In this document: in pieces, positions 14,694-22,583 of the stretch
How positions within the stretch are numbered: the first letter of the stretch is position 1
How the letters are laid out: each line of letters starts with the position of its first letter
Virus record (IMG/VR): IMGVR_UViG_2563366883_000019
Coordinates: 1 to 31,991 of that record
Reading direction: 5' to 3' (one strand)
DNA length: 31,991 bases
Source: a virus
Lineage: Duplodnaviria; Heunggongvirae; Uroviricota; Caudoviricetes
The notes under the pieces: model-generated
Databases searched by the model: none
Told to the model about the DNA's origin: nothing
Seen by the model: only the letters and a program-made list of their open reading frames with translations
Translations under genes and position numbers: made by a program

Positions 14694-16667
14694 TTATGCT
14701 GCTACGGCATTCACACCAACAGTAAGACTTTCAATCAGCACAGGGTAAGTTGCCGCATTTCCGGTAATATCCGTAATTGCCAGCGCGTTGGCCTCAAAGG
14801 CTGCATTCGTCCATCTGGTCAGCGTAAACGGTTTTCCTGCTGCATTATCAAGCACCGGCGTGACGTTCAGCGAGCCACCACCCGGGAAGCGGAAAGTCAG
14901 CGTGTGCCAGTCGTGATCGAACGGACCATAACTACCAAGCCGCTGTGATGTGGTGTTTGCATGATACATCACATTGATGTTTGTTTTATCAGTCTGCAGA
15001 TAGAAGGCCGCAATATAACCCTCCTCTGATTCCGCTCCCGGCCATCCACTACCGCGCCAGTAAATACCCGCAGAATATTGATTTGCAGAAGCATTGAGAG
15101 ATACATCATCGGGGATTTTAAAGCGCAGCGTGATTTCACCGCCGTTATCGAACAGCTCCTTCCCCTTACCGGCATCAATTGCGTGCGATACTTTCCAGGT
15201 CTTTTTCTGTGCAAGACCATTTTCTGGTTTTTCAAGACGAAGGGCTTTTTTACCTGAACCACTGTCACTGACCAGCGTGTTTTTGACATCTGTCAGCGTC
15301 CAGCCCTGCGAAGCCAGAGCGGCATTTTCCGCATTCACATCATAAGCCAGCACTGACTGTATCTTTGTCGGGACAACGGCTTCAGGCTGAGTATCGCCAC
15401 TCTCCTGTGCTGGTTGCGATACGCCTCCGCCTGAAGAAACCGCGGCTTTTGTCACTTTCCCGGAAACAAAATCTGCCACTCTGCCCACATGCAGAAGAAT
15501 GGCTGTTGCCAGACGGTCGGAAATAATTCCGCGACGCGCCCATGAACCAAAGTGGGTTTTACGATCGGATGTTGTCCAGCTCTTCGCATCCGTTCGTCCA
15601 CCGGAACCATAATACCCGATAGCCGGAATATCCGGGTCTTCTGACGGTTCATTGGTCCCGACTTTCTGACCATTGTCATCCATCATAAACGGCACAAAGA
15701 AGATATTTTTACCGGCTTTGGTTTTGTATGCGCCATAGACGGCATCGTATTGCGCTGAATACGTCTCCTTCCAGTAGTACGTCGTGTCACCACAAATCCA
15801 GGGCACCAGAGAAGGAGAAGCACCAGCGCACTGACCGGATACTCCCGCCAGGTCAGAACGGTATTTTTCCACCATGGCATCAAACATGGCGGGCTGACTG
15901 GCGTACGCTCCCTGTTTTAAATCAAACTCGCCCTGCATCCAGACAACACAAAGCAGTATGTTTTTGGGGTTTGCCTTCAGCGCGGCCTGAGTGCGTGTCA
16001 GCAGGTCTTTATACAACGGCTTATCAACGCCCCATCGTTCAGATTTATCCGACGCTCCTGAACTTTCACTGAACGTTCCGTCAGCACCGGCTGTAAACGC
16101 AGAGCCACCACGACAGCACGGCACTAACAAAATACCCGCATTTTCCGGCATAAAGGGCAACAGCTTTTTGGCAATATGCAATCCCTGTCCGACACACCCA
16201 TACTGCTCTGCGCTGGCTTTCGGATGAGAAAAACGGCTCAAATCCTGCACATCATGCAGGCAGTGGTCCGCCGGAATGATGTCGTTATATGCACAGGCCG
16301 CACCACCCGGTGTCACCGTACTGCGACGCGCCAGCTGTTTAATACGCGGGTCCGGACGGTCATATGTCTCCGGCAGCGGCAGGCCTTCACCATACGCCAT
16401 GCCGTTTGACTGTCCGGCCAGCGCAATGACAAAGTAATATTCTGGTTCAACAACAACAGTCCGGGTACCATCTCCCCCCGGTGAAACTACCGGAGAGGTC
16501 ATATCCCCTTCAGCGACTATAGCCTGGATAAATTCAGCACCATAACCCGCGTTTGAGATAATCGGACTACCATAGGGTTGCCAGCCTTCCTTCAGTTTTT
16601 GCGTCAGTTTTCCTGCGAGGTCTGACGGCGATGATGCCCTGACCACGTCATAGTGTTTAAATGCCAT
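14694..16667 (-). CDS. nanS-p: Prophage-encoded sialate O-acetylesterase NanS-p (SGNH/SASA esterase domain plus C-terminal lectin-like region, about 657 aa)
   Basis: ALAGQSNGMAYGEG esterase motif of the NanS/YjhS family; large size and position downstream of the Q/late leader match the nanS-p gene found downstream of stx in EHEC phages. Preferred ATG at 16667 has GGGAGG 4 nt upstream; the ORF track start at 16697 is TTG. Confidence 0.75.
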   Translation of the reverse strand: MAFKHYDVVRASSPSDLAGKLTQKLKEGWQPYGSPIISNAGYGAEFIQAIVAEGDMTSPVVSPGGDGTRTVVVEPEYYFVIALAGQSNGMAYGEGLPLPETYDRPDPRIKQLARRSTVTPGGAACAYNDIIPADHCLHDVQDLSRFSHPKASAEQYGCVGQGLHIAKKLLPFMPENAGILLVPCCRGGSAFTAGADGTFSESSGASDKSERWGVDKPLYKDLLTRTQAALKANPKNILLCVVWMQGEFDLKQGAYASQPAMFDAMVEKYRSDLAGVSGQCAGASPSLVPWICGDTTYYWKETYSAQYDAVYGAYKTKAGKNIFFVPFMMDDNGQKVGTNEPSEDPDIPAIGYYGSGGRTDAKSWTTSDRKTHFGSWARRGIISDRLATAILLHVGRVADFVSGKVTKAAVSSGGGVSQPAQESGDTQPEAVVPTKIQSVLAYDVNAENAALASQGWTLTDVKNTLVSDSGSGKKALRLEKPENGLAQKKTWKVSHAIDAGKGKELFDNGGEITLRFKIPDDVSLNASANQYSAGIYWRGSGWPGAESEEGYIAAFYLQTDKTNINVMYHANTTSQRLGSYGPFDHDWHTLTFRFPGGGSLNVTPVLDNAAGKPFTLTRWTNAAFEANALAITDITGNAATYPVLIESLTVGVNAVAA

Positions 16668-16868
16668 TATTCCTCCCGGCAGGGATAGTGTATGCAATCA
16701 AGATAAGGTGCGGGCTGACGTCAGTCATGGACAAGGGTTCAGAAACAGGAGGATGACTACAGCCCGCAATACGAAAAAGACCATACAGTTGCGCAGAGTG
16801 ATTACTGTCGGGTATTATTCGCCAGCTGAAAATTGATCACTTCACGTTTTGTTGTTTATTCCTTGCCA

Positions 16869-16897: not shown

Positions 16898-16903
16898 ATC
16901 CAA

Positions 16904-16929
16904 CAAGAAAGCCCCTCCGGAGAGGGGCT
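16904..16929 (-). terminator. Minus-strand hairpin terminator ending repeat copy A
   Basis: GCCCCTC-TCCG-GAGGGGC on the minus strand followed by TTTCTTGTT. Confidence 0.5.
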
Positions 16930-17136
16930 GGAGAGTAGCGCTATGTACCGTTCATGCATGGTGCAGGGTGCCTCCCGGTGAGTTCAGTATCAGCACCTGA
17001 ACCCGCACCAGAAAGGATAAGGGGTGTGACCAAACACCTGTCGCTGATATGCCCCTCCGCACAGGGGGATTCACCATGCCATATTTTTTTAACAAACTTC
17101 CCGCTGGCCAGACAATAATCGCCAGCCTGAATTGTG
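16904..17136 (-). repeat. Copy A of a diverged element of about 230 bp (candidate structured RNA) in the late leader
   Basis: Shares conserved 5' and 3' blocks with copy B; the central block differs; internal helices are retained by compensatory changes. Confidence 0.6.
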
Positions 17137-17387
17137 AGTAACGTGGCATTTTACGGGAAAACTGTTTTCTGCAGTAAAAAGGCCCGCCGGAGCGAGCCTG
17201 GAAGGATAGCGGTCATGTGATGCCGGTTTCCCGGTAACTCAGCATCGGTATCTGAGTCAACGTTTTCTCTACTGGGTCATTTCCGATACGTTCCGCCTTC
17301 CGGCAGACTTTCATCACGTCAGAAAATATAGCACCCTGAGTAACAGGACAGTACTCAGAATTCAGGAAACTGTGACACATCCTGCAC

Positions 17388-17412
17388 AGAAAAGCCCCTC
17401 CGGAGAGGGGCT
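17388..17412 (-). terminator. Minus-strand hairpin terminator ending repeat copy B
   Basis: Identical GCCCCTC/GAGGGGC hairpin followed by TTTTCTG on the minus strand. Confidence 0.5.
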
Positions 17413-17606
17413 GAAGTATAGCCTAATTTCTGTCTGTCGCATGGTGCCAGGTGCCTCCCGGTAAATTCAGCCTGGCTACTGAATTTGCATGTTCGCTGGA
17501 TCATACACTTTGCCAGATGCCCCGCCGCTGAGGGGGATTCACCACGCGATGCAATTTTTAACAAATTCTCCGGCAGCCAGACAATCATCAAGCTGTGGAA
17601 TTGTGA
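17388..17606 (-). repeat. Copy B of the same element
   Basis: Same conserved blocks as copy A; the overlapping ORFs in the two copies are not conserved at protein level. Confidence 0.6.
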
Positions 17607-17926
17607 GGTATTTAAAAATTTCGCAGCCTCTTGCCACCCGCTTTTCACAAAAATCGTATGTAGAAGGCCGCAGCGTAACTATCACTGATGAATTCAGGAC
17701 CCCCAGAGGCTACGGCTCAGTTTGGATTGTGGCGGCCGGAATCGAACCAGCTCCCAGCGGTGCGCTGCCGATTACAATACGCGCGGCGATCCGCTACATG
17801 ACTAGTATTTTCACAGTCGCCTGTCTGCTAGCTCGCCATTGAGCTTCACCACAACGATAAGAGCACTGCGCACACCTTTCACCAATTCCACGAGGTCTGC
17901 GGGTTCAATGCTCTTACCTGTTGTGC

Positions 17927-17958
17927 AAACAAAAAGCCCCGACATTTCTGCCGAGGCC
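17927..17958 (-). terminator. Candidate tR'-like terminator downstream of the putative late promoter
   Basis: Minus-strand hairpin GCCTCGGCA-GAAA-TGTCGGGGC (two G:U pairs) followed by TTTTTGTTTG. Confidence 0.45.
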
Positions 17959-18064
17959 TTTACCTAATCTAGCCAGTATGCCGATCCTAAATATTATCGA
18001 CGACCGAGGTAAATCAGGATTTCTCTTTCGCTTCTCAGTGCGCTTTTGCTCCGAGCATACACAA

Positions 18065-18093
18065 AACATACTACTTTCATTTCTCGAAAGCAA
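18065..18093 (-). promoter_or_regulatory. Candidate late promoter (pR'-like) just downstream of the Q-locus genes
   Basis: Minus-strand TTGCTT, 17-nt spacer, TATGTT, located about 25 nt after the stop of the 204-aa ORF and about 100 nt upstream of a terminator hairpin. Confidence 0.3.
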
Positions 18094-18117
18094 CGCATTT
18101 ACAAAAAATATTTTGCA

Positions 18118-18732
18118 TCATCCAGCAATCACTAGAAGTTCTTTCTCCAATTCTCGCTTCATTGCATAAAACATTTCTGAATCAAGGACCCTCTCGCACC
18201 ACACGACCCGCCTCCGGCAATACTGAATATCAACTCCTGTTATCTGAGAAATCATCCTGGCGATATCTTGCGTGCTGTCGCGATTGCAATATCGCCTAAT
18301 AGCTACATCACGGACAGGGCTTTCACGATGAAAGGTCTCAACCATCACACGTTCAACGAAAGCAGCATCATCGGATTCTTTGGCGAGAGCAATGATATTA
18401 CCTGCCGATGACTGAGGGATGACCAGTTCTCGGGCTTTCTGATGGAGTTCATCTCCACGTAGTCCGTCTTCTTCATACAGACGCATGACAACAGACTCAA
18501 TCTGCTTAGCTTTGTCATCGCTCCACTGACTGCGAATCATCAGTCGCCCAATAACGTTAATTGCACCACAAGGAGAATCATCACCAGCGTTAACATTTCC
18601 CCATACCTGTAGCATGTAGTGAACCCATGCTTTCTGACGAGAGTTAATGATTTTCTTCGGATGCCTCCATATGCGGCGGAAATGAGCATCATTAATAAAG
18701 TTAACCATGCCGAATACTGGGGTTAGCCGCAT
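18118..18732 (-). CDS. Putative late antiterminator Q-like protein (about 204 aa)
   Basis: Position after ninH and immediately upstream of a promoter-like element plus terminator; ATG overlaps the stop of the upstream 80-aa ORF (TGATG). Assignment is positional; no motif recognised confidently. Confidence 0.4.
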   Translation of the reverse strand: MRLTPVFGMVNFINDAHFRRIWRHPKKIINSRQKAWVHYMLQVWGNVNAGDDSPCGAINVIGRLMIRSQWSDDKAKQIESVVMRLYEEDGLRGDELHQKARELVIPQSSAGNIIALAKESDDAAFVERVMVETFHRESPVRDVAIRRYCNRDSTQDIARMISQITGVDIQYCRRRVVWCERVLDSEMFYAMKRELEKELLVIAG

Positions 18733-18974
18733 CACAGCCCCCATCCTTTACAATGACACCACACTTCAAACATTCGTTTCACAACTTCACGGCAGTAGAA
18801 ACCGTCAGCATCACGTGTCAGGTCATAGCGATCTCCGTGCTTCAGTCTCATATAGCATTCGAATAATCTGTTCATATACTCTTCGCCATGAACTCCGCTA
18901 TTACGCTGCTCATGCGCTTTTCCAGACGACCTGAATAAAGCCATGCGTTCAGGCACCTGCTGAATATCACGCAT
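18732..18974 (-). CDS. Hypothetical protein at the Q locus (80 aa from internal ATG), Cys/His-containing
   Basis: Begins MRDIQQVPER and starts 8 nt before the ninH stop; the ORF track frame extends to 19079, overlapping ninH. Translationally coupled to the 204-aa ORF. Confidence 0.4.
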   Translation of the reverse strand: MRDIQQVPERMALFRSSGKAHEQRNSGVHGEEYMNRLFECYMRLKHGDRYDLTRDADGFYCREVVKRMFEVWCHCKGWGL

Positions 18975-19167
18975 CAGTAGCTTTCCCCTTATCCCATCCA
19001 CGATGAACCATAAGGACACCGTTGACGACGGCGTGCCGTTTGCCTTCTTTATCACCGACATATTTTCTGACCGTAGCACGATTACAGTTCAGTTTTCGTG
19101 AAACTTCAGTCATATTGCCTCGTGCCTGGATAAGCAATTCCGGTATTGTTTGAATTGTGGCGTTCAT
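18967..19167 (-). CDS. ninH: NinH (66 aa)
   Basis: Matches lambda NinH motifs (TIPELLIQARGNMTEVSRKLNCNRATVRKYV, HAVVNGVLMVHRGW). Confidence 0.85.
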   Translation of the reverse strand: MNATIQTIPELLIQARGNMTEVSRKLNCNRATVRKYVGDKEGKRHAVVNGVLMVHRGWDKGKATDA

Positions 19168-21502: not shown

Positions 21503-21877
21503 ATGAGAAAATCCCCTTTGGCATGGTATACGGATGTTCTTTTTAATAACTACTTCAATTATTCAGGGCGAGCCAGTCGAAGAGAGTTCTGGTGGTATTA
21601 TCTGTTTAATTTAATATTCTTGGGAGTTCTTTTTTTTATCGGATATACATTAGATAATACTGGCATTAGTTATGGGTTTTATATACCTTGCGTTTACGTA
21701 TTAGCTACGATTATTCCATCCATTACATTGAAAGTCCGCAGACTCCATGATATTGGGTTAAGTGCTTGGTACTTGTTTATCTGGTGCATTCCGTATATTG
21801 GTGGCTTTATATTGTTCGTTATGTACTGTATCCCGTCAGAAAAAGGGGATAATAAATACGGTGCATATAGTATTTAA
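21503..21877 (+). CDS. DUF805-family inner-membrane protein (YhaH/YhaI-like, about 124 aa)
   Basis: RREFWWYY and RRLHDIGLSAW motifs with multiple TM segments; preferred ATG at 21503 has GGAG 9 nt upstream (the ORF track frame starts at 21488); low-GC region. Confidence 0.75.
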   Translation: MRKSPLAWYTDVLFNNYFNYSGRASRREFWWYYLFNLIFLGVLFFIGYTLDNTGISYGFYIPCVYVLATIIPSITLKVRRLHDIGLSAWYLFIWCIPYIGGFILFVMYCIPSEKGDNKYGAYSI

Positions 21878-21896
21878 TCCCCGCCAGATAGTCGCA

Positions 21897-22583
21897 TCAA
21901 AAAGTACTGGTTATCTTATCTATTAGATCAAATGTCTTCTCATCAATGTACCAGTACTTTTTATCATCATTTGGGTATTCAACGAAAACCGTCCATAAAA
22001 CCTCTTCCTTTTTAATGAAAGATAAAAGAAAAGTCTCTATATCCTTTGAATTGTCTTTGGGAATAACTGTAATAAATGAAGTCCATTTTTCCAACTTTTT
22101 ACTTTTTATCTGTTTGGCCTCCTTAGGTAGAAAAATTTTAGCATTTGATTCACGTTCCAGTCGGTCTAATAATTGTTTGGCATATATATCAACAGGAACA
22201 CTTATGTCACTTGCTTTATGACGTAATTCAATAGTTGGTGTATACTCGTTCGAAAAATAGAAAACACCATCACTGGGTGATGTTATCAGAGTCTTTTCTA
22301 AATATGTGTATTTGTATGTTATTGGATTAAACCAATAACAGTACCATTCTGGCTTTAATTGCCCGCTATAAGATGTGTTATTATTGTGAACCTTACACAC
22401 AGGATAAATGTTTTCTATATCAGTCCACTTACTTTTATCCTCTTTTTTTTGTGTGTCTATGACGTTTGAGGAGTGTTTTTGGTTGAACACTTGAATATTT
22501 AAAAAAACTAAAAGTATGTTTCCGATAATAGATGCAATAAGCATTTTCTTCAGTTTTGAGTTATCCATATGCATCCCCTTCAT
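21897..22583 (-). CDS. Low-GC hypothetical protein with N-terminal signal anchor (about 228 aa)
   Basis: Preferred ATG at 22583 overlaps the upstream gene's stop (ATGA); the ORF track frame starts at 22592 on TTG. N-terminal TM LIASIIGNILLVFL; Lys/Asn/Tyr-rich composition; no recognised domain. Confidence 0.6.
   Translation of the reverse strand: MKGMHMDNSKLKKMLIASIIGNILLVFLNIQVFNQKHSSNVIDTQKKEDKSKWTDIENIYPVCKVHNNNTSYSGQLKPEWYCYWFNPITYKYTYLEKTLITSPSDGVFYFSNEYTPTIELRHKASDISVPVDIYAKQLLDRLERESNAKIFLPKEAKQIKSKKLEKWTSFITVIPKDNSKDIETFLLSFIKKEEVLWTVFVEYPNDDKKYWYIDEKTFDLIDKITSTF

Follow-up and report, generated by a model that had tools for sequence, protein, structure and literature searches.

A predicted Q21-like antitermination gene and an adjoining chimeric reading frame in the genome of a lambdoid phage

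Two overlapping reading frames after ninH

The DNA analysed here, referred to as the window, is the whole stretch of 31,991 nucleotides (nt) of IMG/VR virus record IMGVR_UViG_2563366883_000019, assigned to the Caudoviricetes. At the end of its nin region it carries two overlapping open reading frames (ORFs), ORF1 and ORF2, whose relation to the Q antiterminators of late genes is the subject of this report. The genes concerned are the following:

18967-19167, minus strand: ninH (Pfam PF06322, 3.2e-29)
18732-18974, minus strand: ORF1, 80 amino acids (aa), MRDIQQVPER..., with Cys40, Cys61, Cys73, Cys75 and several His
18118-18732, minus strand: ORF2, 204 aa, MRLTPVFG..., predicted divergent late-gene antiterminator of the Q21 superfamily

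The TGA of ORF1 (18734-18732) and the ATG of ORF2 (18732-18730) have one base in common, within a TGATG junction. An alternative in-frame ATG, at 18744, would extend ORF2 to 208 aa; its homologues begin at the MRL position instead. The stop codon of ninH overlaps the ATG of ORF1 as well (ATGCGTGA), and the ninH/Q overlap of Shigella phage POCJ13 is identical. The window shares 99.9% identity with Escherichia phage PhiR5_2 (PV340546.1), by whose annotation the nearby gene ninB is named; ninB, ybcO, rusA and ninH, the last three identified by Pfam, lie upstream of the two ORFs on the same strand.

The pair of ORFs, their overlap, the initial MRDIQQVPER and the Cys/His content had been described in a first-pass annotation made from the sequence alone, and are all confirmed. 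That annotation could not place either ORF in the lambda, 21 or 82 families of Q proteins, as is understandable, since neither has a match at E ≤ 0.1 in Pfam or NCBIfam. Both are labelled 'hypothetical' in PhiR5_2 and, by the Prokaryotic Genome Annotation Pipeline (PGAP), in every Escherichia coli RefSeq genome listed, and at least 80% of the locus is present in just 33 of 5426 complete E. coli genomes in RefSeq. Homology argues that they are not chance ORFs: 214 homologues of ORF2 were found in a search of 5.8 billion proteins, and 67 homologues are known for the core of ORF1.

ORF2 and the non-coding block downstream of it

The first-pass annotation had recommended a hidden Markov model (HMM) search against Q families. 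The Pfam families gave nothing, and ORF2 matched PHROG 753 ('anti-termination protein Q-like') over practically its full length (3.3e-68, profile positions 1-186 of 189). Statements on the length and on fusions of ORF2 homologues refer to 120 listed of the 214. Nearly all of these are about 204 aa long (191-208), the exceptions being a handful of incomplete sequences and a single protein of 231 aa. The homologues, which come from E. coli, Salmonella, Klebsiella, Enterobacter, Cronobacter, Serratia, Yersinia and relatives, can be aligned from residue 1 and share many invariant positions. ORF2 is full length, and all the residues invariant in the family are aligned in it. An exhaustive search of 1.84 billion cluster representatives with a profile of the family (A1) returned 41 matches only, and the family is therefore narrow. 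In a phage collection, it is found in only 29 of 50,697 records, which include ST64B (Sb49, 26% identity), ZF40, ENT47670 and several Yersinia phages. No characterisation of, or experiment on, any member was found in the literature on DUF1133 and PhiR5_2.

The AlphaFold model of ORF2 is all-helical, with a predicted local distance difference test (pLDDT) score of 76.6 and a predicted TM-score (pTM) of 0.65. When the model was searched by Foldseek, the ten best matches in the PDB were all chains of Q21, with target-normalised TM-scores of 0.50-0.68, and the helical, sigma-R4-like fold of Q21 is recognisable in it. Structure prediction, suggested in the first-pass annotation, thus yields a Q21-like fold for ORF2. 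A search of a viral fold library returned weak sigma-like matches only. The protein might alternatively be a sigma-like or activator-type late transcription factor, rather than an antiterminator; this alternative is regarded as improbable.

The position of the gene is that of the Q21 family: ORF2 closes the nin region and immediately precedes the predicted late promoter (PR') and the late operon. Sequence families provide a further, transitive link. Weak matches to PF06530 (Phage_antitermQ) occur in 5 of 37 aligned homologues (best E 0.032). The HMM of DUF1133 (PF06576) does not match ORF2 and matches one of the 37, with an E of 1.6e-4. Distant proteins found with the A1 profile reach the DUF1133 gathering score (P0311, 26.2 bits; P0322, 33 bits; P0324, 30.8 bits); P0324 is also above the PF06530 gathering score (36.2 bits), and the Q protein of phage HK75 matches both families. 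Since distant members and HK75 Q span the two families, ORF2 is placed in a Q21/DUF1133 superfamily. Judged by sequence, its tie with DUF1133 is at superfamily level, and it falls outside PF06530 as currently modelled. P0322 (379 aa) and P0324 (366 aa) are both fusions, with an HNH_3 endonuclease domain at the N terminus and the DUF1133/PF06530 Q-like domain at the C terminus.

The DNA 3' of the stop codon was compared in 51 genome loci carrying ORF2 relatives of 37-86% identity (L014-L064), the window, its near-duplicate PhiR5_2 and Salmonella phage UPF_BP1. The same block recurs in nearly all of them, and is composed, in this order, of an A/T-rich palindrome, a -35 hexamer (TTGnnn), a 16-17-nt spacer, a -10 hexamer (TATATT or TATGTT), TATGCTCGG and a sequence resembling AGCAAAAGCGAAAGAGC. 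The corresponding elements of the window, where folding and alignment to the homologous loci revealed promoter and terminator, are:

18065-18093, minus strand: predicted late promoter (PR'-like), with -35 TTGCTT at 18093-18088, a 17-nt spacer containing GAGAAATGAAAGT, and -10 TATGTT at 18070-18065
18051-18059, minus strand: -10-like element TATGCTCGG, predicted sigma-dependent pause element, at about -1 to +8, near the transcription start
17926-17961, minus strand: intrinsic terminator (tR'-like), AAAGGCCUCGGCAGAAAUGUCGGGGCUUUUUGUUUG, with a hairpin of -19 kcal/mol by RNAfold

The spacer contains a conserved GAAAT-GAAAG motif, replaced by AAAGAC-AAAGGG in a Pantoea/Erwinia branch; the GAAAT/GAAAG repeat is a candidate DNA site for ORF2. 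TATGCTCGG is a second -10-like element, located 5-6 nt past the -10 hexamer. The pattern TA[TAC][GA]CT[CT]GG is found 47-80 nt past the stop codon in 34 of 53 loci, compared with 0.3 expected from shuffled sequences, and near-variants of it are present in all but about three; it is kept while the ORF2-family proteins are just 37-85% identical. The sequence after the pause element (consensus AGCAAAAGCGAAAGAGC) is also kept, at the same range of protein identity, across the window, L002 and L014-L063. In the window it reads AGCAAAAGCGCACTGAGAAGCGAAAGAG (18036-18050, minus strand), which looks like an internal duplication. No consensus structure was obtained by RNAalifold for the leader RNA past the pause element, and a 4-bp GCUC/GAGC helix drawn by hand was paired in 66% of cells, with few compensatory changes.

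The leader RNA, up to tR', would measure about 130 nt. A strong terminator is found within 400 nt of the stop codon in 50 of 53 scored sequences, and begins 60-260 nt past it in most. In a generic scan the tR' of the window was missed, probably because flanking A/T pairs lengthened its stem into the T-run. On sequence grounds, a promoter, a promoter-proximal -10-like pause element and a terminator have the layout of a Q loading site.

Composition of ORF1, the exchanged module and its surroundings

ORF1 is a chimera, made of the remains of an older Q gene and of a small Cys/His gene:

18876-18974, minus strand: stub of a displaced PF06530 (Q21/933W/HK75-type) Q gene, codons 1-33 of ORF1 (99 nt), partly out of its original frame
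18732-18875, minus strand: conserved 47-aa protein (MNRLFECYMRLKHGDRYDLTRDADGFYCREVVKRMFEVWCHCKGWGL), residues 34-80 of ORF1, with a conserved C-x11-CHC motif

The two parts behave differently in homology searches. The whole of ORF1 is covered by phrog_17609 (80 of 80 residues, 1.6e-60), and the 80-aa form is confined to near-identical sequences; phrog_3871 covers residues 34-77 only (1.8e-26), and the 67 homologues, mostly 44-49 aa long, align to residues 34-80 only. In the AlphaFold2 model, the pLDDT is below 50 for residues 1-29 and about 80 for residues 30-80, which are folded as a helix-hairpin-helix. The ORF of 243 nt in the equivalent position of UPF_BP1 is not homologous to ORF1.

The first 27 nt of ORF1 match the start of the POCJ13 Q gene (MRDIRQVLERWGAW), and window positions 18883-18947 are 95% identical to about codons 24-45 of HK75 Q. 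Both these Q proteins belong to PF06530. Relative to both genes the stub is short by 8 nt; its frame is therefore shifted, and runs by chance in phase into the 47-aa gene. In a MAFFT alignment, ORF1 codons 12-33 also resembled the leader that precedes the 47-aa gene in two other loci (L066 and L014), a similarity superseded by the HK75 Q match. The sequence TTATTCAGG is common to the ORF1 stub and these leaders, a weak indication that they may hold a decayed stub too. A further sequence, CTTATTCAGGC, as in the WVYSG-coding part of HK75-type Q, is found in the leader 5' of the 47-aa gene (L066, 2346-2500; L014, about 2700-2857) or of the Q-like gene (L002, UPF_BP1); this leader may, on weak grounds, be an older and more decayed Q stub moving with the module. 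Translation of ORF1 could start at Met1, coupled to ninH, or at Met34, which has a weak AAGAG Shine-Dalgarno sequence, the donor leader and its GAGGAAAT ribosome-binding site having been lost.

Similarity by BLASTN to the donor-type module (L014, L066) extends over window positions 18026-18875, its start coinciding with the Met34 ATG. From 17935, a position within the T-run of tR', the window is again similar to HK75, and this T-run and the DNA downstream of it are common to the window and the HK75 tR'. The stub and the two junctions together lead to the conclusion that an ancestral ninH-Q(PF06530)-PR' module was replaced.

The 47-aa gene has a distribution of its own. Homologues (P0164, P0145, P0183) lie directly upstream of xis-int, in the early-left operon of E. 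coli and Salmonella prophages, and P0164 is listed in some 13,000 index blocks of the collection. The first-pass annotation had offered, as one possibility, a Q protein with an accessory. The first half of this proposal stands, as ORF2 has the fold, the PHROG match and the downstream block of a complete Q-like protein. As to the second half, the 47-aa protein could be a cofactor or modulator dedicated to the Q-like protein, in a two-component antiterminator; its Cys/His content suggests metal binding, and in Intestinirhabdus and in some P22-like contigs its gene and the Q-like gene have 1 nt in common, the 47-aa gene of these contigs following a 154-nt gap 3' of ninZ. However, it lies upstream of the Q-like gene in just 3 of the 51 ORF2-family loci and is absent from that position in the other 48, which argues that ORF1 is not a dedicated accessory; homologues of about 70% identity are located between DUF4222 and xis-int, distant from any Q. 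Moreover, the overlap is no mark of a two-protein unit. In most of the 51 loci the Q-like gene starts before the preceding gene has ended, with an overlap of 1, 4 or 11 nt, whatever the neighbour, so that this feature is generic in the family. The neighbours are varied, with YlcG-like peptides, NinH, RusA and NinG-like proteins among them; the overlapping partner of the Pantoea/Erwinia branch is a peptide of 41-49 aa (...YLREKWLRLRI...YRIIRNTAK...), which resembles YlcG. A dedicated cofactor thus has a small chance of being the correct explanation.

Still less probable is a decayed locus, with an inactive ORF2, in a defective prophage lacking a working late switch. The scar of the old Q gene does adjoin ORF2, and the window promoter departs from consensus (see below), but PhiR5_2 was entered in the database as the complete genome of a phage, with MG1655 as its host, and ORF2, as noted, is full length. 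Weakest of all, and hardly credible, is the split or frameshifted antiterminator also put forward in the first-pass annotation: the two frames meet with 1 nt in common, so that a single indel would indeed join them, and ORF1 opens with the Q-like MRDIQQV, but no fused form of about 285 aa exists among the listed homologues, which align from their first residue, most ORF2 homologues follow unrelated genes, the core of ORF1 is an independent gene, often at xis-int in other prophages, and the Q-like start comes from a different Q gene, of HK75/POCJ13 type.

Beyond the locus, about 1.4 kb 3' of ORF2 are devoid of any credible protein gene, and are followed by an esterase gene and then by lysis and packaging genes. 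Two features of this region are listed:

14694-16697, minus strand: NanS-p-like esterase, 667 aa, with DUF1737, SASA (sialate O-acetylesterase) and DUF6645 domains, matched by phrog_143 over its full length
16899-17577, minus strand: three tandem small RNA (sRNA) units of the STnc100 type (Rfam RF02076; 138.7, 129.9 and 30 bits, the last being degenerate), between tR' and the first late gene

The esterase, which we liken to the NanS-p esterase of Shiga toxin (Stx) phages, is the first late ORF, and no stx genes lie between Q and the esterase gene. The sRNA units, confirmed as direct repeats, have terminators at 17412-17393, 17199-17180 and 16929-16910. A late transcript must therefore pass three more terminators after tR', consistent with a need for processive antitermination. 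STnc100/PasD sRNAs have been linked with the Q and esterase genes of Stx-type phages in a 2026 preprint, according to which copies of the related PasA and PasD sRNAs are widely separated in genomes, and not duplicated in tandem (10.64898/2026.05.13.724894).

Positions 17685-17757 (minus strand) resemble the 3' half of a tRNA (GGTTCGATTCC...), with a weak match to the tmRNA clan (E 0.35). No tRNA genes were found in the window by ARAGORN. The segment is probably a decayed tRNA gene, since related phages, mEp506 for example, carry tRNA-Thr and tRNA-Asn there. In the early region, on the strand opposite to the nin genes, the PhiR5_2 annotation places a HigB/HigA toxin-antitoxin pair (about 21581-22109 of the window; L001, 10582-11110).

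Proposed function and relation to known Q systems

Taken together, the data make it likely that ORF2 is a complete, very divergent relative of Q21, accompanied by its own promoter, pause site and terminator, that ORF1 consists of an old-Q stub joined to an unrelated small mobile gene, and that the locus is a case of ordinary lambdoid mosaicism, with no split Q. It would have been ordinary also for the first-pass annotation, had one ORF matched a complete Q family and the other a known nin gene; the former holds in the sense that ORF2 is a complete Q-like protein, whereas ORF1, having no Pfam or NCBIfam match, corresponds to no known nin-region gene (NinH, NinZ and others).

Several results weigh against this assignment of ORF2. 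Compared directly by sequence, it matches no Q family significantly; none of the Pfam models, including the PF06530 HMM, whose gathering score it does not reach, responds at E ≤ 0.1. Comparison of A1 with the PF06530 alignment by hhalign gave an E of 0.65, the latter alignment being of low diversity (at least 76% identity), and the A1 profile against the Q21 sequences of the PDB an E of 0.7. ORF2 exceeds PF06530 proteins by 40-80 aa. The fold argument uses a predicted model of intermediate pLDDT, with two low-confidence loops, and the Foldseek E-values for the Q21 chains are only 0.05-0.6. Finally, the window promoter matches the consensus at 7 of 12 positions, the reason why it was missed by a generic promoter scan, although promoters at the aligned position of homologous loci score 8-10.5 of 12 (for example TTGACC-17-TATGTT, and TTGAAT-17-TATATT with an extended -10). 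In the search of PDB sequences with the A1 profile, ERp29 outscored Q21, a match judged to be spurious.

A mechanism may be proposed by analogy with Q21. ORF2 would be expressed from the distal end of the delayed-early nin operon, would bind DNA at the promoter directly 3' of its own gene (-35 at 18093-18088, -10 at 18070-18065), and would load onto an RNA polymerase that sigma-70 retains at the -10-like TATGCTCGG (18059-18051). The modified polymerase would then pass tR' (17961-17926) and the three STnc100 terminators, into the esterase, lysis and virion genes. ORF1 would stay outside the antitermination machine, as a recombination scar. The incoming cassette would have comprised the 47-aa gene, ORF2 and its cognate promoter and pause site, and would have displaced the Q module of a ninH-Q(PF06530) phage. 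Its left junction is found some 100 nt into the old Q gene, and its right junction in the T-run of tR'. The start codon of the old Q gene, still coupled to ninH, would then open a frame in phase with the 47-aa gene, producing the 80-aa ORF.

Because the ORF2 family, including the ST64B-type DUF1133 relatives, lies outside the three Pfam families of Q proteins of the published scheme (PMC9388147), the late switch of these prophages would be invisible to standard annotation. The conserved TATGCTCGG block is a candidate loading site for a Q21-fold protein of different specificity, and may be useful for comparing Q loading. The old-Q stub provides a clear case of a Q protein and its loading site being exchanged as a unit, with both junctions mapped. 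The understanding of Q antitermination, or of lambdoid mosaicism, is left unchanged by this locus.

Among known systems, the closest is the Q21/Q933W/QuuD family (PF06530; structures 6P18, 6P19, 6JNX and 6JNY), whose members measure 123-172 aa, compared with 204 aa for ORF2, and whose HMM gives no direct match. The PR' sequence of HK75 differs from the promoter and pause sequence 3' of ORF2, and the block therefore appears specific to the ORF2 family. The DUF1133 protein Sb49 of ST64B is about 26% identical to ORF2 across 90% of its length, and one UniRef entry within the ORF2 family bears the name 'DUF1133 family protein'. Pfam assigns no function to DUF1133, and part of HK75 Q is DUF1133. 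Proteins of the Q82 family (PF06323) have the same genomic role as that proposed for ORF2, but their HMM does not match it at E ≤ 0.1. Likewise, ORF2 shows neither an HMM match to the lambda Q family (PF03589) nor the lambda Q fold.

In lambda, a -10-like pause element followed by GGG lies at the start of the transcript (AACGAT-GGG), and the Q binding element (QBE) is located in the -35/-10 spacer. The ORF2 locus presents a functional analogy with this Q/qut system, having TATGCT-CGG at about -1 to +8 and a conserved spacer sequence between -35 and -10. It is conceivable, though rather unlikely, that ORF2 and the DUF1133-like proteins form a functionally distinct fourth class of Q, in which a Q21-like core, larger by some 40-80 residues, would be combined with a loading geometry like that of lambda (a pause element at the start and a site in the spacer), and for which AGCAAAAGCGAAAGAGC could hint at an additional requirement, such as a nascent-RNA or DNA element, unlike either Q21 or lambda Q.
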